From Phycisphaerae bacterium (lineage in GTDB: Bacteria > Planctomycetota > Phycisphaerae > UBA1845 > Fen-1342): DNA of 64,000 bases. The notes below the pieces were generated by a model. That model was not told the origin of the DNA, searched no databases, and saw only the letters and a program-made list of their open reading frames with translations. The stretch is taken from positions 1 to 64,000 of the forward strand of contig JASFQK010000014.1 of NCBI GenBank assembly GCA_050115495.1. Reading direction: 5' to 3'. Of this stretch, positions 1,472 to 52,099 are shown piece after piece (position 1 is the stretch's first letter; each line of letters starts with the position of its first letter). A program made the position numbers and the translations under genes.

Positions 1472-3283
1472 CTAGTCGGCCGAGGCTCCCCAATTGCCAA
1501 GCAGGACGCCCAAGTCGTCGTCGTTGACAACACCGTCGCCGGTGAGGTCGGCGACGGGATCCGCCGTGCCCCACGCCCCGAGCAGAATGCCCAGGTCGTC
1601 GTCGTTGACCACGCCGCTCAAATCGAGGTCGCCGTCGATGCCCACGTAGCCGTGCAGCTCGAGTGACAGACTCGTTCCCGGCATCGCGCCGAACAGGTCT
1701 GTATCATCCGATACGGCGATGGTCCACGTGGCCGAGAACCGGCCCGGGGCTCCATTCGTGTCCAGCGCCGCGAAATACGTCCGCGAGCCGCCGGGCGTGA
1801 TGGTGCCGGCCGCCACGTTCGTGTACAGGCGCGACACGTCGCCCACACCCGTCGCGCTCAGAATGTCCAGATCGGCCGTGTATCCCGGCGTATTCAGGAG
1901 GTTGTGGATGTCGAACTGCGCCTGCTGCAGTCCGCTCCCCGCGTGGAACGCACCCAGGTCGATCACGCGTGAATCGAGGTTGCTGTCAATCGCGAACGAC
2001 GCCTCGGAATGATCCAGCACCTGGTACTGCACGTCGTCCGTGACCTGATTGATCGGAACGCCCGGACTGCTGCTCGTGACGACAATCTGTCCGCTGTAAG
2101 ATCCCGTCGCGCCGGTGTCGTAGGCAATCGGATGCGTGACGCCGCCGCCCAGGGCGGCATCCACACCGGTCGCAGTGCCGCTGAGGTCGCCGGAGCCGAT
2201 CACGGCGTAGTCCAGCTCGTCCGCCCCGTTCGGCGCCACGACGTCGGCCGCGTTTTGCACGGTTACTTCGGCACAGGCGGCGGAACCGATCAGCACTCGC
2301 GCCGGCGCACTGATCGCCACGCCCAGCTTGGCCGGGACCTGGTAGTCGGCCACAACCGCGAAGTGGTCGCTGGCCGCCCAGCATTCCATCGGATCGGGCA
2401 GTCCGCCGACGTTGCCGAACACGCGGTACGTCCCGTCAATCAGATCGACGCCCGCGCCATCCGCGAACTCCAGGCTGGGGAACTGGAAGTCGATCCGCGA
2501 CCAGGCGTAGGATGAGCTGTACGTACAGTACGCCTCGTTCGGAGCCGGGAAACCGTTGCCGCCGCTGCCGTAGTAGCCCGGGGCGGTCTGCGGCCCGTGC
2601 GGATCGAAGGCCACGTGTGAGTGGCTGCCGGCGGTCACCTCGGTATAGGCACCCTCCTGTCCGGTGGTGGTGAGGTTGAAGTCGCCGACATACATGACGT
2701 GTGCGTCCGCCGGCAGCCGCACCATCGCGTCGGTCCAGATCGTCGTGTAGATCTCCATGTGCCGGGTGACTTCGTAGCTGGGATAGGCCTTCAGGTGCAC
2801 GTTGTAGACGTGGAAGTCGGCGTCGGCTCCATATCCGAGAGGCCGGAACCGACCGTACTGGGTCGGGCGATAGCCGGCCGGTGCTTCGCGCATCTCGACA
2901 AGCTGCACCTGCGTGGTGTCGTAGATGAACGCGTAGTCCTCGTAGCTGCCAGCATGGATCTGGCTCCGCACGTACGTACCGCCCCAGAGGTTGTCGCAGA
3001 TGGCCTCAATGTACGCGCCGCTCGGCGGATTGCTCTCCGGATCACGCGAGGTCCCCAGTTCGGTCAGGGCGAGGACTGCCGGGCGCTTCACGATGCCCTG
3101 GGCGTCCTCCGCGGCCATGGCCGACAGCACCGTGGTCCAGTTCGCGTCGGTGGACGAGTACGGCTTGTGGTACGTGTTCCAGGCCACCACACGCAACTGG
3201 CCCAGCGTGGGCACCGCCGCCAGGAGCAGCAGGACGCCGAGAGATGCGCAAACCGGCCAGGCTCCGTTCTGCGTACGATTCAT
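1472..3283 (-). CDS. Secreted endonuclease/exonuclease/phosphatase (DNase I-like) protein with Ig-like region and C-terminal dockerin-like domain
   Basis: Signal peptide; EEP motifs LRVVAWN, LALTE, YNVHLKA, VGDFN, RIDFQ, SDH; paired GDLxxxGVVNDDDLGxLLGxWG repeats. Confidence 0.85.
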   Translation of the reverse strand: MNRTQNGAWPVCASLGVLLLLAAVPTLGQLRVVAWNTYHKPYSSTDANWTTVLSAMAAEDAQGIVKRPAVLALTELGTSRDPESNPPSGAYIEAICDNLWGGTYVRSQIHAGSYEDYAFIYDTTQVQLVEMREAPAGYRPTQYGRFRPLGYGADADFHVYNVHLKAYPSYEVTRHMEIYTTIWTDAMVRLPADAHVMYVGDFNLTTTGQEGAYTEVTAGSHSHVAFDPHGPQTAPGYYGSGGNGFPAPNEAYCTYSSSYAWSRIDFQFPSLEFADGAGVDLIDGTYRVFGNVGGLPDPMECWAASDHFAVVADYQVPAKLGVAISAPARVLIGSAACAEVTVQNAADVVAPNGADELDYAVIGSGDLSGTATGVDAALGGGVTHPIAYDTGATGSYSGQIVVTSSSPGVPINQVTDDVQYQVLDHSEASFAIDSNLDSRVIDLGAFHAGSGLQQAQFDIHNLLNTPGYTADLDILSATGVGDVSRLYTNVAAGTITPGGSRTYFAALDTNGAPGRFSATWTIAVSDDTDLFGAMPGTSLSLELHGYVGIDGDLDLSGVVNDDDLGILLGAWGTADPVADLTGDGVVNDDDLGVLLGNWGASAD

Positions 3284-40394: not shown

Positions 40395-40610
40395 TTACGG
40401 CAGGCGAGCCCTACCTCGCCCTGAATCCTCGTGTGCGATGCCCAGAATCAGCGCCACCCCCACCGCCAGCATGGCCAGCAGCGTGTCTTCCTTGACGGCC
40501 AGACCCACCTCCGCCGCGTACGCCGTCACGACCGTCGCCACCGCCACCTGCACCTTCCGACTCGCCAGCGGCCACAGCCACCGACGCCAGCCCGTCACCT
40601 TCGGCTCCAT
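40395..40610 (-). CDS. Small two-TM holin-like protein
   Basis: LASRKVQVAVATVVTAYA...LLAMLAVGVALILGIAHED (SRK-TM-TM-acidic pattern of small holins); GGGAG RBS. Confidence 0.6.
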   Translation of the reverse strand: MEPKVTGWRRWLWPLASRKVQVAVATVVTAYAAEVGLAVKEDTLLAMLAVGVALILGIAHEDSGRGRARLP

Positions 40611-40624
40611 CGCGTTCTCCCGTT

Positions 40625-41110
40625 TCAATCCTGCCGCACCGAAGTAGCCGCCTCTTCGGCGACGCACTTCCCCGCCTCGGCGGCGACGCCCTCACGCACC
40701 CGATCCACACGCCGCAGCACGTCCTTCAGCAGCAGGTCCACCACCGCCTGGTCGCTGGCCAGCTTCGCATCGACGCCAACTACGCGCAGCGCCCGCGCTC
40801 GCTCATGCTGCACCGTCCAGAACTCCAGCAGGTCCCGCTCGTTCCACGCCGCACTTAGCGCCGCCTGACCGGCCGCCCCTATCGGCGTACCGGCCTCGGC
40901 GAGCCGCGCGACCAGATCGCGGAACAGCAGCACGCGCAGCGCTTCCTGCTGCTGTTCGAAGACGGCCTGCGACACTTCGTCCGCCCGCTGCTGCGCCGCC
41001 ATGGCGATGCGCAACGACTCGCGCGTGCACCCGCCGGCCAGCCCGCCGAGCAGAACCAGAACCACCAGCAATCCGCCGGCACCGCACCTCGACCGCTCGC
41101 ATCGGTTCAT
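40625..41110 (-). CDS. Helical lipoprotein in the capsid operon
   Basis: Lipobox LAGGC then an all-helical body; GGAGGTG RBS; start overlaps the upstream stop (ATGA). Confidence 0.7.
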   Translation of the reverse strand: MNRCERSRCGAGGLLVVLVLLGGLAGGCTRESLRIAMAAQQRADEVSQAVFEQQQEALRVLLFRDLVARLAEAGTPIGAAGQAALSAAWNERDLLEFWTVQHERARALRVVGVDAKLASDQAVVDLLLKDVLRRVDRVREGVAAEAGKCVAEEAATSVRQD

Positions 41111-41421
41111 CCCACACCTCCCACCAGGCTCAGCAACCGCACGGCGCACACCACACCGTCGCGCCACTTCTCCGCCGCCACCGCTTCCGCCAGCCGCTGG
41201 GCCGTATCCCGCACCTCTTCGTGCGCAAGCCACCCTCCGGCCGGCGTATCCCGCGGCAGCTCCGCCGTCGTGTAATCCCGTGTCGTCGGCGTCTGCGCCG
41301 CCTGCCACCGCTGCCCCTCAATGAGCAGCGCATCGATCACATGCCGCGCCGCCGTCACGAACGCCCGCGCCGTCCCCGCGTCCACATTCTTCACCAACGT
41401 CTCAAGATCCATCACCGCCAT
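41107..41421 (-). CDS. Hypothetical protein in the capsid operon
   Basis: GGAGG RBS; 104 aa; translationally coupled to the lipoprotein. Confidence 0.7.
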   Translation of the reverse strand: MAVMDLETLVKNVDAGTARAFVTAARHVIDALLIEGQRWQAAQTPTTRDYTTAELPRDTPAGGWLAHEEVRDTAQRLAEAVAAEKWRDGVVCAVRLLSLVGGVG

Positions 41422-41481
41422 CCTCCGCCGAAAACGCCGCCCCTATGTCCCTTTGTTCCTTGACCCCTTTGCCCCTCCCAC

Positions 41482-41769
41482 CTAGACCAGCTCCAGATTC
41501 TCCACCTGCCTCGACAACCGCCCAAACCACTCCATCTCCGTCTGCCGATGCGAGCGCAGCTCTTCACGCAGCGCGACCAGCGCCTCCGTGTTATGCCGAA
41601 TCACGTCCAGCAGGTGATCGTTCAGCTCCACCACCTGGCTCGCCCGGCTGACCGCTTCACGCAGCGTGGTGGCCCCGCGCATCCGTTCCTGTCGCTCGAT
41701 CCACCACATGACGAAGAGCAATCCCGCCACGCCCAGCGACGGCAAATGTGCCAGAACGTCGCTGAGCAT
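41482..41769 (-). CDS. Single-TM coiled-coil protein (BhlA/UviB holin-like)
   Basis: SLGVAGLLFVMWW TM followed by a coiled coil (LLDVIRHNTEAL). Confidence 0.65.
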   Translation of the reverse strand: MLSDVLAHLPSLGVAGLLFVMWWIERQERMRGATTLREAVSRASQVVELNDHLLDVIRHNTEALVALREELRSHRQTEMEWFGRLSRQVENLELV

Positions 41770-42095
41770 CAGTCCACCAGCTCATACCAGACCGTGATCG
41801 TGTGCGCGCCGCTCGGCAGACCGAACGAATCCGTCAGCGCCAGCGCCTTGCCCCGGTCGGCGGACAGCCCGTAGCGCCGCCCGAACACGAGGTCGAGCGT
41901 GGTGTTCGCGGCCATCTGCATGTTCTTCAGCACGTCGCGCTCGTCGGGCCCGCTTGGGTCGCTGAGCAGCTTGAACGTCCCGCTCCCGCCCGTCGCCACG
42001 CACACCCGGGTGACCACGATGATCTTCCCCGGCACGCCCGGCACGAGCGTTTCCCTGAGCCTCGAACTCAAGTATTCGGCCATGAATACGGCCAT
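41769..42095 (-). CDS. Small beta-rich hypothetical (possible virion-type structural) protein
   Basis: GAAGGAG RBS; 108 aa with beta-strand pattern ending ITVWYELVD; stop overlaps the next start. Confidence 0.65.
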   Translation of the reverse strand: MAVFMAEYLSSRLRETLVPGVPGKIIVVTRVCVATGGSGTFKLLSDPSGPDERDVLKNMQMAANTTLDLVFGRRYGLSADRGKALALTDSFGLPSGAHTITVWYELVD

Positions 42096-42129
42096 CGTCC
42101 GTTCTCCTTCCTGCGGGCCGGGGCGTCGC

Positions 42130-42567
42130 CTACAGCCCGTCCAGCTCCTGCGTCGCGAAACCCTGTCGCCCGCTGCGGTAGCGAGGCGTGTCCTCCGCCG
42201 GCGTGCTGCCCGTGGGCAGCTCCACAGCCCCGCTGGCCACCCGCTGCAACCACCGCCGCGCTTCATCACCCAGCACGCGCACCCGTCCCGGCAGGTCGTT
42301 CACAAACGGCGACGCCTGCCACGCCAGGAACTCCGCCAGGTCCAGCACGCGCGACCGCAGCAACGTCGCCAGCTCCGGATGTGCCACCAGGTCCACCGGC
42401 GTCGTGTACTGCCGGCAGAGATAGCTGTCCGCCTCGGCCTCGGCCTCCGCACAGATCTCGCCGGCGACGGTCGAGTTCGGCGTCGTCCCGTTGACCCGGT
42501 CGGTCAGCCGCCCGTACAGCGTCGCCCCGAGGCGGGCGTTCAAATCCGATGCGCTGATGTACGCCAT
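42130..42567 (-). CDS. Mu gp36-like (DUF1320) head-tail adaptor
   Basis: MAYISASDL..R.G...LTDR...AEAEADSYL..QY..P...EARRWLQRVASGAVEL. Confidence 0.88.
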   Translation of the reverse strand: MAYISASDLNARLGATLYGRLTDRVNGTTPNSTVAGEICAEAEAEADSYLCRQYTTPVDLVAHPELATLLRSRVLDLAEFLAWQASPFVNDLPGRVRVLGDEARRWLQRVASGAVELPTGSTPAEDTPRYRSGRQGFATQELDGL

Positions 42568-42685
42568 CGCCCTCGTCCTCCATCAGAGCCCGCCCGATGA
42601 GGCGGGGCGGCCGGACGTCGCTTGCAGCAGACGAACGTCACGGCCGGCCCTCGCCTCCGGCGCGGCTCCCGGTCTCGATCGGGGA

Positions 42686-43609
42686 TCAACTGAAGGTTAC
42701 GAGGCAGGCGTCCTGCCAGAAGCCATACCCGGCCTCGTGGATCGCCTTCACCCCGTACTGGTGCTGGTTCTCGTTGATTTCGAGTTCGCTGCCCTCGGCC
42801 AGGGCCTGGACCTGCACGGGCAGCTCTTCCTGGAAGATGAACGGCCGCGACTCTCCGTCGGTGCGGAACACGGCGAACTGCGTCGTCCACGTCAGCCGCG
42901 GGTTTGCGGCCCACTCGACCTGGAACGGCTCGCCGACCTTCAGCGGGTTCGCCGTCCGATCGGTGCGGTCGGCCAGGGCCATCATCGTCGCCGCCCAGAA
43001 CGGCATCGGCACCATGACGAGGAAGCTCCGCGCCGCCTCGTTCATCGGCTCGCCCTGGTCATCGCGGAAGCTCAGGACCTGCCCGATCGCCGCCACGATC
43101 CCCGCGAACATCTCCTCGTCGGTCGGCGCCGTCGCGGTGGCAGCGTCGCAGCTCAGCGAGTTGCTCTGCGAACCCGAGTCGCCTTCGCTGTGCGTCGTGT
43201 CGAAGAACGCATTCCCGTCGTAGCAGGCCTCGCTCTCCCCGCTCAGCAGGAGAGCCGTCAGCAGCTTGTTCGGATGCGTGGCCACCCGGCGGGCCATCTC
43301 GTTCACCCGCACCATGATCTGGCCGGTCTTGTCCCGCCGCTGCTCGTCGGCGTCGACGCGAATGGTCGACTCCCACACCTTGTTCACGATGGTCACGCCG
43401 CTGGCCCGCAGCGGGCGCACCTTGCGACCGCCCTGCCACTCCCGCACCTGCGGCACCATGCCCAGCCAGCGGTACGTCTCCGCTTCCTGCGTGCTCACGA
43501 AATGCATCGCGAGCTTCGTCCACCACGCGCTCTGGGCGTATTCCTCGAGCCGCCGATAGAAGCGCCCGATGATCGCCCGAGACGTCAGCCCCGTATCCAC
43601 AATCGCCAT
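42686..43609 (-). CDS. Mu-like major capsid protein (gpT family)
   Basis: ETYRWLGMVPQVREWQGGRK...NKVWESTIRV...DKTG...CYDGNAFFDTTH...AGYGFWQ; intact 307 aa; AGGAG RBS. Confidence 0.93.
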   Translation of the reverse strand: MAIVDTGLTSRAIIGRFYRRLEEYAQSAWWTKLAMHFVSTQEAETYRWLGMVPQVREWQGGRKVRPLRASGVTIVNKVWESTIRVDADEQRRDKTGQIMVRVNEMARRVATHPNKLLTALLLSGESEACYDGNAFFDTTHSEGDSGSQSNSLSCDAATATAPTDEEMFAGIVAAIGQVLSFRDDQGEPMNEAARSFLVMVPMPFWAATMMALADRTDRTANPLKVGEPFQVEWAANPRLTWTTQFAVFRTDGESRPFIFQEELPVQVQALAEGSELEINENQHQYGVKAIHEAGYGFWQDACLVTFS

Positions 43610-43802
43610 CTGTCTCTCCTTGCACCCCTGAAAAGCCCCGTCGAAAAAGGGGACTGGCTCCGAGCCCCCAGGTTCCTAGTGCCGCCAAGACCGCCCGCGG
43701 CGAGGTGCCTGTCCCCTCTTTCGCGCCGGCAACGCAACGGCTGCCGAGCTGAAGGCACTCTGTCATCCCTCGTCCGCCACAGGGGGCGGACGCTACGGCG
43801 TC

Positions 43803-44543
43803 CTACGCCGCGATGTCCCGACTCAGAATGATCCACTCGCTCCCCGTGCACAGCAGGTGCACGCAGTCGTAGCGGGCGTCCATCGCCGCGTACGTGGCCG
43901 AGTTGTCGATCGTCTCGGCGGCGTTGCCGTCGAGCGTGATCGCCGCGGCGTCGGCCGATGTCTTCACCACGCGCAGCCAGCCTCCGGCCCGCACCGTGGC
44001 GACCGGCGGCAGGGTCAGCGTCCGCGCCACCGTGTTCCCCATCAGCAGCACGCGGTTCATGTGGTCCAGCGTCAGCGTGTGGTTGGCGTCGCTCAGCACG
44101 AGCGCCGGCCGCCCTTCCAGCACGCCGCTGAGCGCCGCGATCGGCTGGCAGCGGACGCGGGCCACGCCGCTACCGTCCGTGCCGACGATGCGCCCGACGC
44201 GCGAGTTCCCCGCCGGCGTGAGCGTCAGCGTCTCGTCGTCGCTGGCGTAGATGTCCTTGCCGACGTCGCCGAGGACGACGCCCGTCAAGGTGTGCACGAC
44301 ATCGATGCCCTGGTGCAGGCGAACCGACACGCCGCCGGCGGTGTGGCCGGTTGCGGTGTTGTCCGCCGCCCGATAGGCGATGCCCAGAAACTCATCCCCG
44401 GCGACGAGCGGCCGGGCGTACCCGGTCGACCGATTCCGGCCCACGAAGGCGTTCCGGTAGATCTTCACGTCGTCATCCACCGGGACGTCGATCAACTCCG
44501 CCGACGCGTAATACGCCACATCCCGATCCGCACTGAGTGCCAT
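43803..44543 (-). CDS. Capsid decoration/cement protein fused to a fibre-tip-like C-terminal domain
   Basis: N-terminal MALSADR...KIY...G...FLGIA...ADNT...DVGKDIYASDDET...RVGRIV (Mu-like head decoration type), then TLTLPP...VVKT.....ITLDGNAAETID...L.CTGSEW. Confidence 0.75.
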   Translation of the reverse strand: MALSADRDVAYYASAELIDVPVDDDVKIYRNAFVGRNRSTGYARPLVAGDEFLGIAYRAADNTATGHTAGGVSVRLHQGIDVVHTLTGVVLGDVGKDIYASDDETLTLTPAGNSRVGRIVGTDGSGVARVRCQPIAALSGVLEGRPALVLSDANHTLTLDHMNRVLLMGNTVARTLTLPPVATVRAGGWLRVVKTSADAAAITLDGNAAETIDNSATYAAMDARYDCVHLLCTGSEWIILSRDIAA

Positions 44544-44708
44544 GCCCGTTCTCCTGTGTCCTGCGATCCTCGTCCGGCCGGCAGTTCCGGCCGCACGCTT
44601 CCGTTCTGATTGCCGGCGGAGAAAGGGGACCGACGCCGCGCCCGACCGCCCTCGCCGTGGCCCACGCCAGACGCCCAGCGAGGGCCTGTCCCCTTCCTCA
44701 GCCGCCCG

Positions 44709-45848
44709 CTAGCGAATTCCGCTCAGCAGCACGCGGCCGCCCGCTACCGCCCGTGAGTACGCCGCCAAGTCTTCCGGCGTGACGCCCCACCGGCGAAACG
44801 TCTCGTCCTCGCGCCGCTGCTCGCGCGCCGTGTTTGCCACCGCCCCGCCGCGATCCCGCCGATCGAGAGCCTGCACGCGTCCCGGCGGCAGGATGACCGG
44901 CGCCCGCGTGAGGCGCTCTTCCGTCGCCGCCGCGTCGCGCAGGTAGTCCTCGCGCCAGTCCATGCTGGTGCTGTCGAGGATCTTGCCCTGCCGCAAGCCG
45001 CGTTCGACGAACGTGTCCGCCTCCTGCGTCGCGAGCCGCCGCCGCAGACGCGTGATTTCGGCTTCGGCCTCGGCCAGCGCCGGCGACAAGTCGTCTGCCG
45101 GCTCTTCCGCGCTGTCGTCCTCGTCGTCGAGGACGCTCTCGTCCGCGCCGCGGGCCGAGGCCGCCAACGGCGGAACGGCGCGCATCGCCGGATCGTTCGT
45201 CAGCGCCACGGGGCCGAGAGCGGCGAGGTCGCTGTGCTCCTCGTCCGTCCAGAAGATGACCGGCGAGAAGTAGCGGTACTCACCGCTGCGGAGCAGTTCG
45301 GCGGCGCGCTCGGTCCAGGTGACATCGATGGCCCAGAGGCCGTCGTCGCGGACTTCGAGTCCGCCGATCCAGCCCGCCGCCGGCCGCAACCCGTCGGCCC
45401 GCGTGTTGAAGCGATCGAAGCTCTGGTGTTCGTAGTCGATGGCGAGCTTTCGCCCGATGGATTCGAGCCAGCACTGGGCCGACTCGGCGTGGCGGCGCGT
45501 AAAGGTGAAATCGCCGCCGGCGCTGGCCCGTTCGACCTGCACCTGGCCGAACGGGATCAGCAGGAATTCGCGCACCGGCTCGCCGCCGGCCGCGGCCAGA
45601 CGCGTACATGCCAACAGCGAGCACGGACCGGCGGGCTGCTCGTCACTACCGACTTCCTGCGCGACTTCGAGCGCCGCGGCGCGGTCGGCGAGATCCGCCA
45701 GCACTTCACGCACGCGGCCCAGTTGCCCGGCCACGTCCTCCTGCACCAGCCCGGCCGCTTCGCGCAAACGCGTCAGAAGCTGCTCCCGCGCCACGTGCAC
45801 CAGCGGACTTGCCGTCTGCGTCCTGTCCTCGTTCACGGTTTGCTCCAC
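44709..45848 (-). CDS. Mu-like prohead protease/scaffold (gpI family)
   Basis: IDYEHQ, PAAGWI, GLWA.DVTWT.RA..L..GEYRYFSPV and ALTNDPAM, with a scaffold-like C-terminal helix. Confidence 0.9.
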   Translation of the reverse strand: MEQTVNEDRTQTASPLVHVAREQLLTRLREAAGLVQEDVAGQLGRVREVLADLADRAAALEVAQEVGSDEQPAGPCSLLACTRLAAAGGEPVREFLLIPFGQVQVERASAGGDFTFTRRHAESAQCWLESIGRKLAIDYEHQSFDRFNTRADGLRPAAGWIGGLEVRDDGLWAIDVTWTERAAELLRSGEYRYFSPVIFWTDEEHSDLAALGPVALTNDPAMRAVPPLAASARGADESVLDDEDDSAEEPADDLSPALAEAEAEITRLRRRLATQEADTFVERGLRQGKILDSTSMDWREDYLRDAAATEERLTRAPVILPPGRVQALDRRDRGGAVANTAREQRREDETFRRWGVTPEDLAAYSRAVAGGRVLLSGIR

Positions 45849-45869
45849 GGCTGAAACCTCACTTTCTAC

Positions 45870-46394
45870 TCAGGCGGCCCCGCTCTGCCGGGCTTGCGAC
45901 CGCCCCGCCCGACCACCGGCGCCGTTTCCGTTCCCATTCCCGTTCACGCCCGGCGACAGGCGCAGCGTCTCCACGTTCCCCTTGCCGTTGACCTGTCCTG
46001 TGCTGATGAACCCGTTCGCCTGGTAGAACCCGCGCGGATCGCCGGAGGTGATGTCCACCTTGGCTCGCACTTCGGTCGCCCGGCTGATTTGCAGCAGCAT
46101 GCTGCCGATGTGCAGGCCGCGATACGCCGGATGAACCAGCAGATTCACGAGCCGATGCCCGCGGGTCGTCACCGCCGCCCCGACGAGCACGCCGTCGAGC
46201 TCGGCGACGTACACCTGGTGGTACGGCCCACCGACGATCTCCGCCAACTGACCACGGCGGAAGAAGTAATCCCGCCGCAGGAAGACGTCGTAGAAGAACT
46301 GGAGCGGGGAGACGTCGCTCGACTCCGCCCGGCGGAGCACCAATCGCGCCGGACCGTCCGTTTCGTGAGCGTGCTGCGGATCGTCATGATTCAT
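45870..46394 (-). CDS. GNAT-family N-acetyltransferase
   Basis: VYVAELDGVLVG, LLVHPAYRGLHIGSMLL (motif A) and GFYQANGF; ATGA-coupled to the portal. Confidence 0.85.
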   Translation of the reverse strand: MNHDDPQHAHETDGPARLVLRRAESSDVSPLQFFYDVFLRRDYFFRRGQLAEIVGGPYHQVYVAELDGVLVGAAVTTRGHRLVNLLVHPAYRGLHIGSMLLQISRATEVRAKVDITSGDPRGFYQANGFISTGQVNGKGNVETLRLSPGVNGNGNGNGAGGRAGRSQARQSGAA

Positions 46395-47671
46395 GACTGA
46401 CGCCCCCCGTTCAGAACCGGCTCATCGCCGCGGGCTTCGGGGATGCCGAGCGCCCGGTGCACCCACTGCCGCGGCACGGCGAGGCCGAGATCGTTCACGG
46501 CCACCGCCAGCACATCCGCGAGCACCTTCGTGTCCACCGATTGCACCAGCGACCGCCGCAAGGTCGGCACTGCCACGCCCTCGCCGAAACGAGCCCGCAC
46601 CAACGGCGTGAGCAGATCACGGCGAATCGTGCGGCTCTCGGCAGCGATGTCGTTGACGAGCAGATCCTCGCGAACACGGTCGTGCACCTCGGCCGCCGCC
46701 CGCGAGCCCGATTGCCGTAGATCGGTAGTCAGGTGCTGGCCGAGCCAGAGGATGGTGACTTCGGTGTTACAGTATTCCTGAAGCGGTTCGTACGGCCGCT
46801 CGCCCTTGCTGCCGTCGACAAAGTGGAGTTCGACGTTCTTGGAGAACGCCGCCACGGCGTCGCTGCTGAGGGCGTCGAGCATCCGCAGCAGCTCCTGCTT
46901 GTCGGCCTCGGGCAGACCGGGCTCGAAGCGGGCGACGCGCAGGGGCATGCCGGCGATCTGCGAGAACGTCAGCCAGTCCTTAAAGCTCAGGTTCTGGGCG
47001 AGGAAGAGCACCGCCGACGCTCGCAGCAGACCGCCTTCGAAGTGACGGCCGGCGACGGGCTGCGGCTGGTGAACGATCCACTTGTTGGGCTGTTCGTCGA
47101 GGGCGACGCCGACGTCCGGTCGCTCGGCCGTGAGGACGCGCAGGCGCCAGGGCTCCTGCGGATCGCCGACGAGGCGGCCGTGCGGGACGGGCACGAGGTC
47201 GACGAGTTGGCCGGCCTCCCAGATGAGCTCGACCGCCGCGACGCCGGTCGCAATGGCGGACGCGAGGTGATCGAGGATTTCGGTGAAGTTGTCTAGTTGG
47301 GCGAGCGTCTCGCGGCAGAAGTCGGGGGCGCCGGTGGCGTCGGGTGACGCGTCCGCCGACGGCAGGATTTCCCAGTCGAGGCCGGTGAGGGCGAGTCGGC
47401 GGGTCTGCTCGACGGCGGCGAGGCGCGGCCACTTCTGCAGCATCTCGCGGAAGATCTCGAATTGGGCCTGGGGCCAGCCGGCGTCGGCGGCCTGGAGGCA
47501 GGCGACGAGGCGCTGGGGCGTGAGGCCGCGGGAGGGATACGTGTGCTGATTGTCGGCCCGCCAGGGACGGATCACGCGGCCGGGGCTGTCCGCCTCGCGG
47601 GGTCCGCGGGGCAGGAGCGAGCCGAGGGCCCGGAACAGGCCGGCGAGGACGTGCTGTGCGGGGTGTGCCAC
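46391..47671 (-). CDS. Mu gp29-like (DUF935) portal protein
   Basis: PSRGLTPQRL...ADAG...RRLALTGLDWEI...GLLR...KDW..F....GMPLR...ILWLGQHLTT...GSRAAAEVHDRVREDL; GTG start after AGGAG. Confidence 0.92.
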   Translation of the reverse strand: MAHPAQHVLAGLFRALGSLLPRGPREADSPGRVIRPWRADNQHTYPSRGLTPQRLVACLQAADAGWPQAQFEIFREMLQKWPRLAAVEQTRRLALTGLDWEILPSADASPDATGAPDFCRETLAQLDNFTEILDHLASAIATGVAAVELIWEAGQLVDLVPVPHGRLVGDPQEPWRLRVLTAERPDVGVALDEQPNKWIVHQPQPVAGRHFEGGLLRASAVLFLAQNLSFKDWLTFSQIAGMPLRVARFEPGLPEADKQELLRMLDALSSDAVAAFSKNVELHFVDGSKGERPYEPLQEYCNTEVTILWLGQHLTTDLRQSGSRAAAEVHDRVREDLLVNDIAAESRTIRRDLLTPLVRARFGEGVAVPTLRRSLVQSVDTKVLADVLAVAVNDLGLAVPRQWVHRALGIPEARGDEPVLNGGRQS

Positions 47672-47991
47672 GGTCGTCTCTCCTGGTGGGCCAGTCGGCG
47701 GCGTGCCGCGGCCTCACACGAGAAAGGATAGCACGAGAAGATAGGAATGCTAGGATACCCGGTTGGTTTGTCGTGGGCTGGCGTGGATTGCGCTGTTCTG
47801 GCGGGGATTGGTTGGGGGGAAGGAGCAGAGGGGCAGAGGAACAAAGGAGCAAAGGGGACTGCGGTCGGGAGCGGGTTGGCGGAGGGGGCGGTTGTTGGCG
47901 ATCGACGGCCGACACGGAGGTCGGCCGCTACGTTGCGCGGCGAGCGTCGCTCGGTATTCGACGTCGGCCACGGGGGGCCGACGCTACGGGG

Positions 47992-48074
47992 TGTGGCATG
48001 CCGAAGCGTAGCGCCGGCATGTCCTTCGCTCGCGTCAAGGAAGACATGCCGGCGCTACGCTTCGGCATGCCACA
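47992..48074. repeat. REP-like palindrome family A (other copies 52202-52285, 56443-56527, 60000-60087)
   Basis: TGTGGCATGCCGAAGCGTAGCGCCGGCATGTC ... GACATGCCGGCGCTACGCTTCGGCATGCCACA; long inverted arms; intergenic only. Confidence 0.85.
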
Positions 48075-49904: not shown

Positions 49905-51305
49905 TCAGGCGAACAGACGCCAGCCGGCGGCCACTGCGGCGCAAACGACGAGGGCCAGTGCGAGCGGCATGAGGTTCGACCATAACGTCCACTTCACGCT
50001 GCGCGTCTCGCGGTAGATGGTCCACGTCGCCGTGGCGCAAGGGAAATGCAGCAGCGAGAAGAGCATCATGCAGAAGGCGGTGAGGAGTGTCCAGCCGTGC
50101 TCGCGGAAGAGCGCGCCGGCTTCGGCCGCGTCGAGCTCGGTCATCTGGCCGCCGGCCAGGTAGGCCATGATGATCGTGGGGAGGACGATCTCGTTGGCGG
50201 GCAAGGCGATGAAGAAGGCGAGCAGGAGCACACCGTCGAGGCCGAACCACCAGGCAACCGGATCGAGCCAGCCGGTGAGGTGGGCCATGATGCTGGCGCC
50301 GCCGACGTGGACGTTGCCGAGCAGCCAGATCACGCCGCCGGCGGGTGCGGCCGTTACGCAGGCCCGTGCGAGCACGAAGATGGTGCGGTCCATGATCGAG
50401 CGGTGGATCACGCGGAGGATGGCCGGTCGGCGATAAGGCGGTAATTCGAGGTAGAAGTGGCTCGCTTCGCCGCGAAGGACGGTGCCGGACAGCGCGCGGC
50501 AGGCCAGGAACGTGACGATCACGCCGAGCAGGCAGACGCCGGCGACGCAGGCTGTGGCGAGGACGCTGCGCCAGGCGGGTGGGGCGAGCGGGGCGACGAA
50601 GACGGTCGCAATGAGGATGACCGTCGGCCAGCGGCCGTTGCAGAGGACGAAGTTGTTGGTGACGATCGCGAGCAGGCGTTCGCGCGGCGATTCGATGATG
50701 CGGCACGCCGTCACACCCGCCGCATTGCAGCCGAAACCCATGGCCATGGTCAGGGATTGCTTGCCGTGGGCGCCGGCCCAGCGGTACAGGCGGTCGAGGT
50801 TGAAGGCGATACGCGGCAGGTAGCCGACGTCCTCCAGCAGCGTGAAGATCGGGAAGAAGATCGCCATCGGCGGCAACATCACGGAGATGACCCAGGCCAG
50901 GCCGCGGAATACGCCGTGCACCAGGAAGCCGGTCAGCCACCAGGGTGCGCCGACGGCGTTCATTCCCGCGGCAAGCTGGTCGTGGACCCAGAAGAGGCCG
51001 GTCGCCAGCCACTGGCTCGGCACGTTGGCACCAGTGATCGTCATCCAGAGGACGCCGGCGAGGAGCAGCAGCATCGTCGGGAAGCCGGCCCAGCGGCTGG
51101 TGAGGATCTTGTCGGCGAGGAGGTCCCAGTCGATGTGGCCCTTGCCGGTGACGTGGATGGAGGCGCCGGCGATTTCCTCGGCGCGGGTGTAGAGCGAGGC
51201 GGCGATGCGGTCGTGCACGCCGGTGCCGAGCTTGTCGCGCAGCTCGTCAGCGCGGGTCACGACGGCGGGCCAGCCACCGTCGGGTGGGGTCGGCGTGCGG
51301 GTCAT
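49905..51305 (-). CDS. feoB: FeoB membrane (Gate) domain, C-terminal half of a split FeoB
   Basis: LLEDVGYLPRIAF, MGFGCNAA, CNGR, ELPPYRRP, PANE and HFPC; ATG overlaps the stop of the GTPase gene. Confidence 0.9.
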   Translation of the reverse strand: MTRTPTPPDGGWPAVVTRADELRDKLGTGVHDRIAASLYTRAEEIAGASIHVTGKGHIDWDLLADKILTSRWAGFPTMLLLLAGVLWMTITGANVPSQWLATGLFWVHDQLAAGMNAVGAPWWLTGFLVHGVFRGLAWVISVMLPPMAIFFPIFTLLEDVGYLPRIAFNLDRLYRWAGAHGKQSLTMAMGFGCNAAGVTACRIIESPRERLLAIVTNNFVLCNGRWPTVILIATVFVAPLAPPAWRSVLATACVAGVCLLGVIVTFLACRALSGTVLRGEASHFYLELPPYRRPAILRVIHRSIMDRTIFVLARACVTAAPAGGVIWLLGNVHVGGASIMAHLTGWLDPVAWWFGLDGVLLLAFFIALPANEIVLPTIIMAYLAGGQMTELDAAEAGALFREHGWTLLTAFCMMLFSLLHFPCATATWTIYRETRSVKWTLWSNLMPLALALVVCAAVAAGWRLFA

Positions 51306-52099
51306 GTGTACTCCCCCCGGCCGCCCGTCGCGATGAGCTGCCGCAGTTCGCCCGTTGCGACCATCTCGCGCATGCGTTCGTCGCCGGCGAGGAGGCGGAG
51401 GGCGATCCAGCGGGCGCACTTCAGGCCGGGCAGCGATGCGGTCAGCATGGCGGCGAGTTCGGCGACGGCGGGTTCGAGCTCATTGTCGAACTCGAGGCGG
51501 ATCGGTTGGGGCGTGCTGCGGCCGGCGGCAATCTCGTGCACGTGGTTGATCAGGTGATCGAGCCCCTGCCCCCGGCGAGCGGCCGTCGGCACGACCGGCA
51601 CGCCGAGCTCCTCTTCGAGCACGCGGGCTTCGAGAGCGATCTTCTTGCGGTTCGCCTCGTCGATGAGATTGGCGCAGACGACGACGCGGTCTGTGATTTG
51701 CAGGATTTGCAGGGCGAGGCCGAGGTTGCGTTCGAGGACGGTCGCGTCGCAGACGACGATCGTGCAGTCGGGGTTGCCGAAGAGGATGAAGTCGCGGGCG
51801 ACCTGCTCGTCGATGCTGTCGGCCAGGAGCGAATATGTGCCGGGAAGGTCGACGAGCTTGAACGTGGAGCCGGCGTGCTCGAAGGAGCCCTCGGCGCGGG
51901 CGACGGTCTTGCCGGGCCAATTGCCGGTGTGCTGGCGGAGGCCGGTGAGGTGGTTGAAGACGGTGCTCTTGCCCGTGTTGGGGTTGCCGGCGAGGGCGAC
52001 GACGAAATCGTGCCGTCCGCCGATCGTCAGGGCGACGGCTGACGGAGACTCCGCCGAGGGACGACCACTGCACGAACCGCAATCGGGCACGCCTGGCAC
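51302..52099 (-). CDS. feoB: FeoB GTPase domain, N-terminal half of a split FeoB
   Basis: GNPNTGKST, GNWPGKTV, DLPGTYSL and NLIDE. Confidence 0.92.
   Translation of the reverse strand: MPGVPDCGSCSGRPSAESPSAVALTIGGRHDFVVALAGNPNTGKSTVFNHLTGLRQHTGNWPGKTVARAEGSFEHAGSTFKLVDLPGTYSLLADSIDEQVARDFILFGNPDCTIVVCDATVLERNLGLALQILQITDRVVVCANLIDEANRKKIALEARVLEEELGVPVVPTAARRGQGLDHLINHVHEIAAGRSTPQPIRLEFDNELEPAVAELAAMLTASLPGLKCARWIALRLLAGDERMREMVATGELRQLIATGGRGEYT

Follow-up and report, generated by a model that had tools for sequence, protein, structure and literature searches.

Does a run of phage head genes with neither terminase nor tail genes beside it mark a prophage in decay, or a device that its bacterial host has kept? 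This question is raised by a Mu-like capsid operon in a Phycisphaerae bacterium (GenBank assembly GCA_050115495.1). The stretch analysed here, hereafter the window, comprises the first 64 kb (positions 1 to 64,000, forward strand) of contig JASFQK010000014.1, which is 145.6 kb long and belongs to a genome of 5.97 Mb in 85 contigs (92% complete); the operon is therefore not at a contig edge. A first-pass annotation of the window had regarded the operon as a retained module rather than a decaying prophage, and had offered three options for its product: a particle resembling a gene transfer agent (GTA) with partners encoded elsewhere, a protein nanocompartment, or a device for interference with phages. 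We compared the locus with 60 relatives, namely 36 Phycisphaerae genomes of the same family (the own family) and 24 genomes from ten families of the same order (the sister families). The first option gave the best fit, with an unlinked, conserved and apparently co-regulated terminase found in the same genome. The head operon and this terminase together are probably a domesticated, vertically inherited and GTA-like particle system of Mu-type phage origin. Genomes, contigs and loci are designated by G, C and L numbers where they need to be told apart, and the window's genome is G000.

A Mu-type head operon

The G+C content of the operon region is 68%, and the lists of open reading frames (ORFs) are crowded for that reason; the operon genes were picked from the list by a third-position G+C filter. 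The eleven co-oriented ORFs described earlier proved to be real and lie on the minus strand between 40395 and 47671.

46391..47671, minus strand: Mu-type portal, 426 aa (PF06074, E 1.5e-72; phrog_113)
45870..46394, minus strand: GNAT acetyltransferase, 174 aa (PF13508), ATGA-coupled to the portal gene
44709..45848, minus strand: Mu gpI-type head maturation protease with a C-terminal scaffold region, 379 aa (PF10123, E 3e-35; phrog_328)
43803..44543, minus strand: decoration protein, 246 aa, with an N-terminal capsid-cement and a C-terminal spike domain (phrog_1731; AlphaFold2 (AF2) model)
42686..43609, minus strand: Mu gpT-type major capsid protein, 307 aa (PF10124, E 6e-43; phrog_371)
42130..42567, minus strand: Mu gp36-type head-tail adaptor, 145 aa (PF07030; phrog_195)
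41769..42095, minus strand: s1, small all-beta, jelly-roll protein of virion type, 108 aa (AF2 model, pLDDT 94.5)
41482..41769, minus strand: s2, 95 aa, with an N-terminal hydrophobic helix and a predicted coiled coil, conserved in 28 loci
41107..41421, minus strand: s3, soluble helical protein, 104 aa, conserved and also found in G030
40625..41110, minus strand: s4, lipoprotein, 161 aa, with a lipobox cysteine invariant in the alignment
40395..40667, minus strand: s5, small membrane protein with a conserved core of ~70 aa, holin-like by size and topology only

Six of these genes (portal, GNAT, protease, decoration, capsid and adaptor) were assigned by Pfam and PHROG; the five small ORFs s1-s5 had no family match in profile searches, and NCBIfam gave no informative match for the operon proteins. 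The earlier gene list holds for all eleven genes, but its terms 'holin-like', 'lipoprotein' and 'small beta protein' are labels of sequence features only. Of the ATGA couplings reported earlier, that of the portal stop, which overlaps the GNAT start, was confirmed. The portal, of which the window's genome has one copy, stands with the protease, the capsid protein and the adaptor in the canonical Mu-like order, as judged against Mushuvirus and JBD30. The slot after the portal, where Mu-like phages have MuF, is occupied by GNAT instead.

Conservation, selection and inheritance

The portal was found as a single copy in 34 of the 36 own-family genomes (59-71% identity) and in 18 of the 24 sister-family genomes (42-50%), and the capsid protein in 33 (66-82%) and 18 (37-42%) of them, respectively. 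GNAT is present in 33/36 own-family genomes, and its matches in the sister families (4/24) were weak and generic; s4 was detected in 33/36 versus 0/24 genomes. When the class was sampled with 150 genomes, the portal appeared in 19 of the 20 genomes of this order and in no other order bar one distant case. Another family of the class, f20, carries a distant Mu-type portal in 6/7 genomes (23-29% identity to the sister-family portal), possibly one more conserved element of phage origin.

The operon genes were collinear in both sets of family loci compared (nine and 46 loci). GNAT adjoins the portal in 46/46 family loci, and the remaining genes are present wherever the contig is long enough, with the exceptions of L055, L074 and L078. 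Lengths are nearly constant (309 aa for the capsid protein, 150 aa for the adaptor and ~101 aa for s3), and the frames are intact in ~50 species-level genomes. The dN/dS ratios, calculated as median pairwise NG86 values over 51 non-redundant loci, were 0.22 for the capsid protein, 0.24 for s5, 0.29 for the portal, 0.31 for the decoration protein, 0.37 each for GNAT, the adaptor and s2, 0.39 for s3, 0.40 for the protease and 0.43 for s4, and are rough because dS is ~1 and near saturation. Ten of the eleven genes thus fall between 0.22 and 0.43, which indicates purifying selection.

The operon diverges at the rate of host genes. Mean identity to the window within the family was 75.4% for the capsid protein and 75.3% for GyrA, and identities correlated with those of GyrA (Spearman 0.56 for the portal and 0.65 for the capsid protein), the relatives being non-independent samples in these comparisons. 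All 21 portals from Phycisphaerales grouped together in the portal tree, apart from Mushuvirus and a Casadabanvirus (support 100), and the families came out as clades. Approximately unbiased (AU) tests on the portal data did not reject two clades of the GyrA tree (p 0.32 and 0.28). The REP-like elements of the host that are found within the operon are a further sign of residence. The stem branch leading to the own family is long, with 1.04 changes per site in the portal versus 0.30 in GyrA.

Some of the flanking synteny outlasts the divergence of the families. A TPR gene adjoins the cluster in three sister families and lies 4 kb from the portal in one own-family locus, and gyrA is found at most 10 kb away in two own-family genomes (G023 and G032) and ~2.6 kb 5' of the terminase in one sister-family genome (G056). 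Conservation, selection and host-like divergence therefore rule out a decaying remnant and fit long vertical residence. The operon is collinear and near-universal in the own family, its gene lengths vary little, dN/dS stays below 1 and the portal and GyrA trees are compatible, all of which agrees with the first-pass view of a retained module.

A large terminase encoded apart from the head genes

Searches of the window's genome with the Pfam terminase models PF03237, PF03354, PF17289 and PF04466, or with a hidden Markov model (HMM) of the large terminase (TerL) of the sister families, gave no match; across the own family, these Pfam families and the sister-family HMM found a terminase in 2 of 36 genomes, both weak or on other elements. 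The gene was found through its promoter region. Upstream of the portal, we noticed the following element:

47721..47756, minus strand: promoter-like element, a tandem CCTAG-N5-CCTAT followed by a TATCCT -10-like box, 50-85 nt 5' of the portal start

Aligned upstream regions of the portal genes share an A+T-rich element tTCTAGAcaTtCTAG, followed after 10-12 nt by GCTATGCTT, ~60-110 nt before the start. The tetranucleotide CTAG is ten-fold under-represented in the window's genome, and in all 5.97 Mb the composite motif occurs just twice, at the portal promoter and at G000:C22:19076. The latter lies 70 nt before an ORF of 489 aa:

G000:C22:19146-20615: Mu-type large terminase, 489 aa (phrog_38, E 1.2e-94, residues 13-476)

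This terminase is barely detected by Pfam (Terminase_6N, E 0.007), and readily by PHROG and phmmer. It is the top match in the genome for the TerL proteins of Mushuvirus and JBD30 (phmmer, E 4e-37 and 2e-41, respectively), and its closest phage relatives are the Mu-like Casadabanvirus and Burkholderia phages (28-29% identity), the same groups as those of the portal. The Walker A (APRGHAKST) and Walker B (LIICDDIEKDE) motifs are invariant in 12/12 orthologues. All 36 own-family genomes have the terminase (E <= 0.001), 35 of them with a best piece at E <= 1e-148 and 57-72% identity and one (G028) as fragments only; in the sister families, matches were weak (24-31% identity, 7/24 genomes). As a solitary gene, it is flanked by dprA/cysS and an Lcl_C/Ig-domain gene. 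In two own-family genomes, G021 and G035, it lies directly 5' of the portal, which is its canonical place in phages. The adjacency to dprA/cysS was considered as a link to competence and set aside, as it was not seen in 11 other loci, although most of these reach only ~1.5 kb past the terminase.

The strict tandem motif was found within 300 nt upstream of the portal in 26/50 cases, of the terminase in 6/12 cases and of the other ten operon genes in none (0 of 21-50 each), and its background in the family loci is 0.010 per 300 nt. The sister-family loci L022-L032 had no such motif. With a terminase that is unlinked yet kept throughout the family and shares the motif, the system is split rather than terminase-less. 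The statement that there is no terminase is thus correct for the operon and its surroundings but fails at the level of the genome. More generally, the Pfam terminase models missed the packaging enzyme, which means that 'head-only' calls made from domain scans can be wrong.

The cluster in the sister families

In the sister families, the cluster begins with TerL (430-520 aa, Terminase_6N and 6C) and continues with the portal, protease, cement, capsid, gp36 and gp37-like genes and four to six conserved genes of unknown function, and it is bordered directly by host genes. It resembles the own-family operon in that the portal, protease, cement, capsid and gp36 genes are collinear (33-48% identity), single-copy and flanked by host genes, with the portals in one clade. 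It differs in having a Terminase_6N/6C TerL beside the portal and a gp37-like gene and several unknown genes behind gp36, and in lacking GNAT, s1-s5 and the CTAG motif. The terminases of the two forms have no detectable relation (hhalign probability 1.2%).

The downstream genes of the sister families have no counterpart in the own-family loci, and when the window's genome was searched for them with tblastn, no more than two weak partial matches appeared (C33, 4e-9; C15, 2e-4). We also considered whether GNAT and s1-s5 are diverged forms of these downstream genes, and rejected the idea as there was no HMM match. The own-family form could have arisen from the order-wide cluster by a swap of the terminase and fast change along the stem, or by a second domestication of a related phage.

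The TerL-portal pair of the sister families is sometimes on another contig than the capsid genes; it was found apart from the protease-capsid genes in the loci L025, L029 and L031 and the genomes G037, G041, G043 and G058. The TerL of L031 is fused to an N-terminal extension of ~560 aa (an ORF of 1007 aa). One own-family genome carries a TerL of the sister type (G014:C89:22078-32419, E 8e-52) ~8 kb from a Mu-type transposase, so the sister TerL lineage occurs also in an apparently true Mu-like prophage.

Head proteins and the small genes

The protease motifs DYEHQ (His141) and YxSPV (Ser195) are at least 95% conserved among 46 sequences, including those of the sister families and Mushuvirus. 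The acetyl-CoA motif R-G-x-G-I-G of GNAT is conserved as well. We found no phage homologue of GNAT, and its neighbours in the protein atlas are generic and RimI-like; in structure, the RimI-type N-terminal acetyltransferases apparently come closest to it, which gives no more than a lead.

The decoration protein had been described as a decoration-fibre fusion. The AF2 model (pLDDT 86, built from 28 orthologues) confirms this description, because its two predicted domains match cement proteins and spike domains, respectively. Residues 7-141 resemble the phage cement proteins of HFTV1, phiCD508, Pam3, FCWL1 and XM1 (Z 7-10). Residues 145-245 resemble the XD domain of CBA120 TSP4, an Acinetobacter phage tailspike and the C-terminus of the capsid spike of Pseudomonas phage Pa223 (Z 11.7-13.8, root-mean-square deviation 1.6-2.5 A over 92-96 residues). 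The 45 copies extracted fall into two length classes, 32 being long (243-246 aa) and 13 short (135-146 aa, without the spike domain).

The model of s1 is an eight-stranded jelly roll. It matches phage virion or uncharacterised proteins of 105-120 aa in BFVD (TM 0.6-0.78) and the KHP40 cement protein (TMq 0.57). We rejected the idea that s1 is a portal stopper or an analogue of Neck1, since the predicted fold is a jelly roll as in small virion and cement proteins, with no likeness to stoppers or necks. The protein atlas gave no lead for s3, and s5 had no holin family match in the Pfam and PHROG scans; the holin- or spanin-like look of s3-s5 comes from size, hydrophobic segments and the lipobox only.

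The genes s3-s5 are separable from the capsid genes, as they occur without them in G030 and the reverse is seen in G022, L055 and L078. In G030, which is 99% complete in 7 contigs, s3-s4-s5 are kept between host genes, and the portal, capsid and GNAT genes are absent; the three genes lie at C1:2527000-2528300 (L081, 9166-10227). G022 retains the capsid genes and s1 and lacks s2-s5, and neither L055 nor L078 has s1-s5 within the 10 kb fetched downstream. It may be that s3-s5 are an unrelated neighbouring operon.

Proposed function of the particle

We infer that the genes give rise to particles, that these contain DNA and that they are released from the cell. A common signal would switch on the operon and the terminase locus through the shared rare promoter or operator motif. 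The portal would then nucleate a procapsid, in which the gpT-type capsid protein assembles around the scaffold part of the gpI-type protease, and the protease would mature the shell. The terminase would pack DNA through the portal, probably unspecifically as in GTAs, because no small terminase was recognised, and the gp36 adaptor would complete the portal vertex. Cement trimers with an outward spike domain, possibly together with s1, would decorate the shell, and the spike could mediate binding. GNAT, coupled to the portal in the MuF slot, may acetylate a component of the particle or its cargo, and the adjacent membrane and lipoprotein genes s3-s5 may serve release. The heads thus probably hold DNA and carry outward spikes. 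We also propose tentatively, and with some doubt, that such tail-less, spike-coated capsids, filled with DNA by the unlinked terminase, are a host-controlled vehicle in which the spike of each cement trimer binds target cells or matrix and whose DNA is taken up by the recipient, for example by natural competence, instead of being delivered by a tail.

Several points weigh against a GTA-like system. The Pfam families for the sheath, Baseplate_J and MuF (PF04233) were found in 0/5 well-assembled family genomes. When 40 proteins of JBD30 and Mushuvirus were searched with phmmer against the window's genome, the terminase, portal, protease, capsid and decoration proteins were recovered, and no tail, neck, MuF, small terminase (TerS), endolysin or holin was, in a test of low sensitivity: small or fast-evolving proteins escape it, given that it also missed the gp36 adaptor, which is known to be present. 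With neither tail nor neck recognised, and likewise no small terminase, MuF or endolysin, the delivery device is either missing or unrecognised. Only around one promoter in two has the strict motif, and at the head of each copy of a five-copy non-coding repeat of ~450 nt stands the same tandem CCTAGCATTCCTAG motif; the tandem CTAG motif may therefore be a general promoter type rather than the mark of a dedicated regulon. The ratio for s1 (dN/dS 0.71) indicates weak constraint, and the saturation of dS and the non-independence of the relatives noted above count here as well. G030, in which the head genes are absent, keeps an intact terminase with Walker motifs (C5:13621-14994, L125), which is odd for a dedicated packaging enzyme. 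Finally, all the genomes compared are metagenome-assembled genomes of uncultured bacteria.

These points leave room for other explanations. It is unlikely that the DNA-filled heads use the tails of infecting or resident phages, as in a capsid-forming phage-inducible island that has become immobile, or that they are dead-end decoys which soak up the supply of packaging or tail proteins, the third option of the first-pass annotation. Mu-like transposable phages and siphovirus-type prophages circulate in the family and could serve as helpers, but they are patchy (11/36 genomes for the former), whereas the operon is near-universal and seemingly vertical. The gene content (packaging, a full head, an adaptor and no tail) is that of capsid-forming islands as generally known, yet there are no integrase, replication or regulatory island genes beside the operon or the terminase. 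Purifying selection on the gp36 adaptor suggests that a surface for joining is still of use; on the other side, a decoration protein with a spike suggests that the heads themselves bind something. PADLOC returned no defence family for 15 proteins (0 families).

A complete GTA, with divergent tail genes that went unrecognised elsewhere in the genome, would turn the head-only look into an artefact of annotation. We regard this as quite unlikely. The real terminase did escape the Pfam terminase models, the phmmer search missed even an adaptor known to be present, and the four to six conserved genes behind gp36 in the sister clusters could be a novel short tail. Nevertheless, those downstream genes are without homologues in the own-family loci and had just the two weak partial matches in the window's genome, no further phage-like gene was found beside the five top motif-guided candidate sites scanned (on C1, C47, C82, C6 and C19), and the sheath and baseplate families had no match in the five genomes searched.

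A DNA-free protein compartment with GNAT as its cargo would account for a portal-coupled, family-specific GNAT and for the failure to find MuF (PF04233) in five genomes. It is very improbable in the face of a cognate terminase with invariant ATPase motifs in 36/36 genomes, the promoter motif shared with it, and the retention of portal and adaptor; the nanocompartment option is weakened accordingly. That the operon is an inert prophage remnant with decay pending is hardly tenable. Most phage functions are missing and host repeats have entered it, but its frames are intact and constant in length in ~50 species-level genomes, its dN/dS ratios are far below 1, its capsid protein matches GyrA in conservation and a conserved promoter element is present.

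The domesticated, GTA-like system remains the reading that we prefer. Should the more doubtful idea of a tail-less vehicle prove right as well, GNAT with its coupling to the portal would represent a novel type of head protein in place of the DNA pilot MuF, and the whole would be a gene-transfer particle of undescribed design; together with the sister form, it would represent an ancient, order-wide domestication of Mu-type heads in Planctomycetota. The two forms make up a natural series, with an order-wide cluster in which the terminase adjoins the portal versus one family in which the terminase lineage was apparently swapped and moved. The own family also seems to have gained GNAT and the spike and lost the downstream genes, and G030 and G022 are natural 'knock-outs'. 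The system is a possible example of DNA-filled capsids working without a tail. Judged from the labels of the sequence records, these bacteria are common in wetlands and in wastewater or anammox reactors, and a particle that exchanges DNA would, if true, bear on gene flow in such communities.

Neighbouring genes and other elements

The Pfam and PHROG scan around the operon covered 18 minus-strand ORFs between 35255 and 52099. As the first-pass annotation had stated, no terminase, tail, transposase or endolysin family was found among them; nor did the ORFs scanned include transposase A/B, repressor, lysis or tail genes contiguous with the head genes. The flanks of the operon, within these 18 ORFs, and the surroundings of the terminase are without genes for replication, integration or lysogeny. 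The upstream neighbours are of host type, as claimed, and encode a 268-aa double-zinc-ribbon-like protein, a cation-efflux protein and FeoB on the same strand. Three small unknown ORFs follow 3' of the operon, and then a GT2/GT4 glycosyltransferase gene. FeoB (window 49905-52099, minus strand) consists of two overlapping ORFs, the N-terminal GTPase (51302-52099) and Gate/FeoB_C (49905-51419); either the gene is split or a frameshift has occurred. The repeats resembling host repetitive extragenic palindromes (REP), which the earlier description had placed between the genes, are present as follows and belong to a hairpin family with 128 copies genome-wide:

43771..43801, no strand given: one host REP-like hairpin, in the operon spacer that separates the decoration gene from the capsid gene
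47906..47992, no strand given: two REP-like hairpins (at 47906 and 47962), upstream of the promoter element and 5' of the portal

Two 43-nt segments of the window, 41440-41482 in the s2-s3 spacer and 47815-47857 on the 5' side of the portal promoter, are 77% complementary. Both are A+T-richer and purine- or pyrimidine-biased, and resemble the G/A-rich GGGGCAAAGGGGCAGAGG tracts that follow the five-copy repeat. The copies of this repeat, several of them near contig ends, are located in G000 as listed below:

C7:62205, plus strand: repeat copy
C30:178, plus strand: repeat copy
C32:80399, minus strand: repeat copy
C36:498, plus strand: repeat copy
C25:1881, plus strand: repeat copy

The repeat belongs to no Rfam family, and its folding was no better than that of shuffled sequences (z -1.3). 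On C25, two matches to the Rfam Acido-Lenti-1 RNA lie at ~1563-1608 (minus strand) and 1750-1795 (plus strand) (L117), with 57.6 and 46.9 bits, above the gathering score. A motif-like TTTCTATATAATCTAGA site at C1:143105 is near the gene for a 337-aa sigma-70-family protein (Sigma70_r2 and r4; C1:144854-145867, L120), and also near methyltransferase and acetyltransferase genes. Its sigma factor might be what regulates the CTAG promoters.

The window's genome carries other phage elements. On C34 (46000-66000, L118) there is a siphovirus-type prophage or remnant with a 766-aa TerL (phrog_38/15), a portal (phrog_21), a protease-capsid fusion (phrog_4523), a major tail protein and a 783-aa tape measure, adjoined by a DNA methyltransferase gene and an Abi-alpha-like gene. 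A tape measure was found in only one genome, and it belongs to this separate prophage. Some relatives have several copies of ~760-aa TerL ORFs like that of C34. A further element, transposable and Mu-like, lies at C3:181393-191200 (L127); it encodes MuA (858 aa) and MuB and has four unknown ORFs as well as the genome's second Mu-like protease (386 aa). MuA was found in 11/36 own-family genomes (25-32% identity) and 0/24 sister-family genomes; this patchy distribution is the pattern of a mobile Mu-like phage, in contrast to that of the operon.

Comparison with known systems

To our knowledge, few independent GTA lineages are known, and none is from Planctomycetota. In the titles and opening lines of abstracts that we surveyed, there was no description of a GTA or a domesticated capsid in Phycisphaerae or Planctomycetes. 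Like the RcGTA-type GTAs (Rhodobacter capsulatus), the present system consists of phage-derived structural and packaging genes without genes for replication, integration or lysogeny, occupies more than one locus, is inherited vertically under purifying selection and is near-universal in its host clade. RcGTA also has capsid head spikes. The two differ in ancestry, which is of the HK97/RcGTA type in the latter, whereas a Mu-type head and a Mu-type TerL are combined here. Furthermore, no tail, small terminase or lysis enzyme was recognised in the present system, its head operon includes GNAT, and its packaging and transfer of DNA are putative.

The Mu-like phages, represented by Mushuvirus mushu and Pseudomonas phage JBD30 (Casadabanvirus), share the gene order TerL-portal-[MuF]-protease-decoration-capsid-adaptor and are the best phage matches (32-36% identity for the portal and 28-29% for TerL). 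Unlike in these phages, there are no transposase A/B, MuF, Neck1, tail, lysis or regulatory genes here, TerL is usually unlinked, GNAT replaces MuF, and the locus is fixed in the host lineage.

Capsid-forming phage-inducible chromosomal islands (cf-PICIs) encode head and packaging proteins and no tail. Being mobile, these islands carry genes for integrase, regulation and replication, and they need a helper phage. In contrast to them, the present system has no integrase, regulatory or replication module, and its flanks are host genes. Encapsulins are likewise shells of the HK97 fold that cells have domesticated, but they are without a portal, a protease/scaffold, an adaptor and a terminase, and the system described here has all four.

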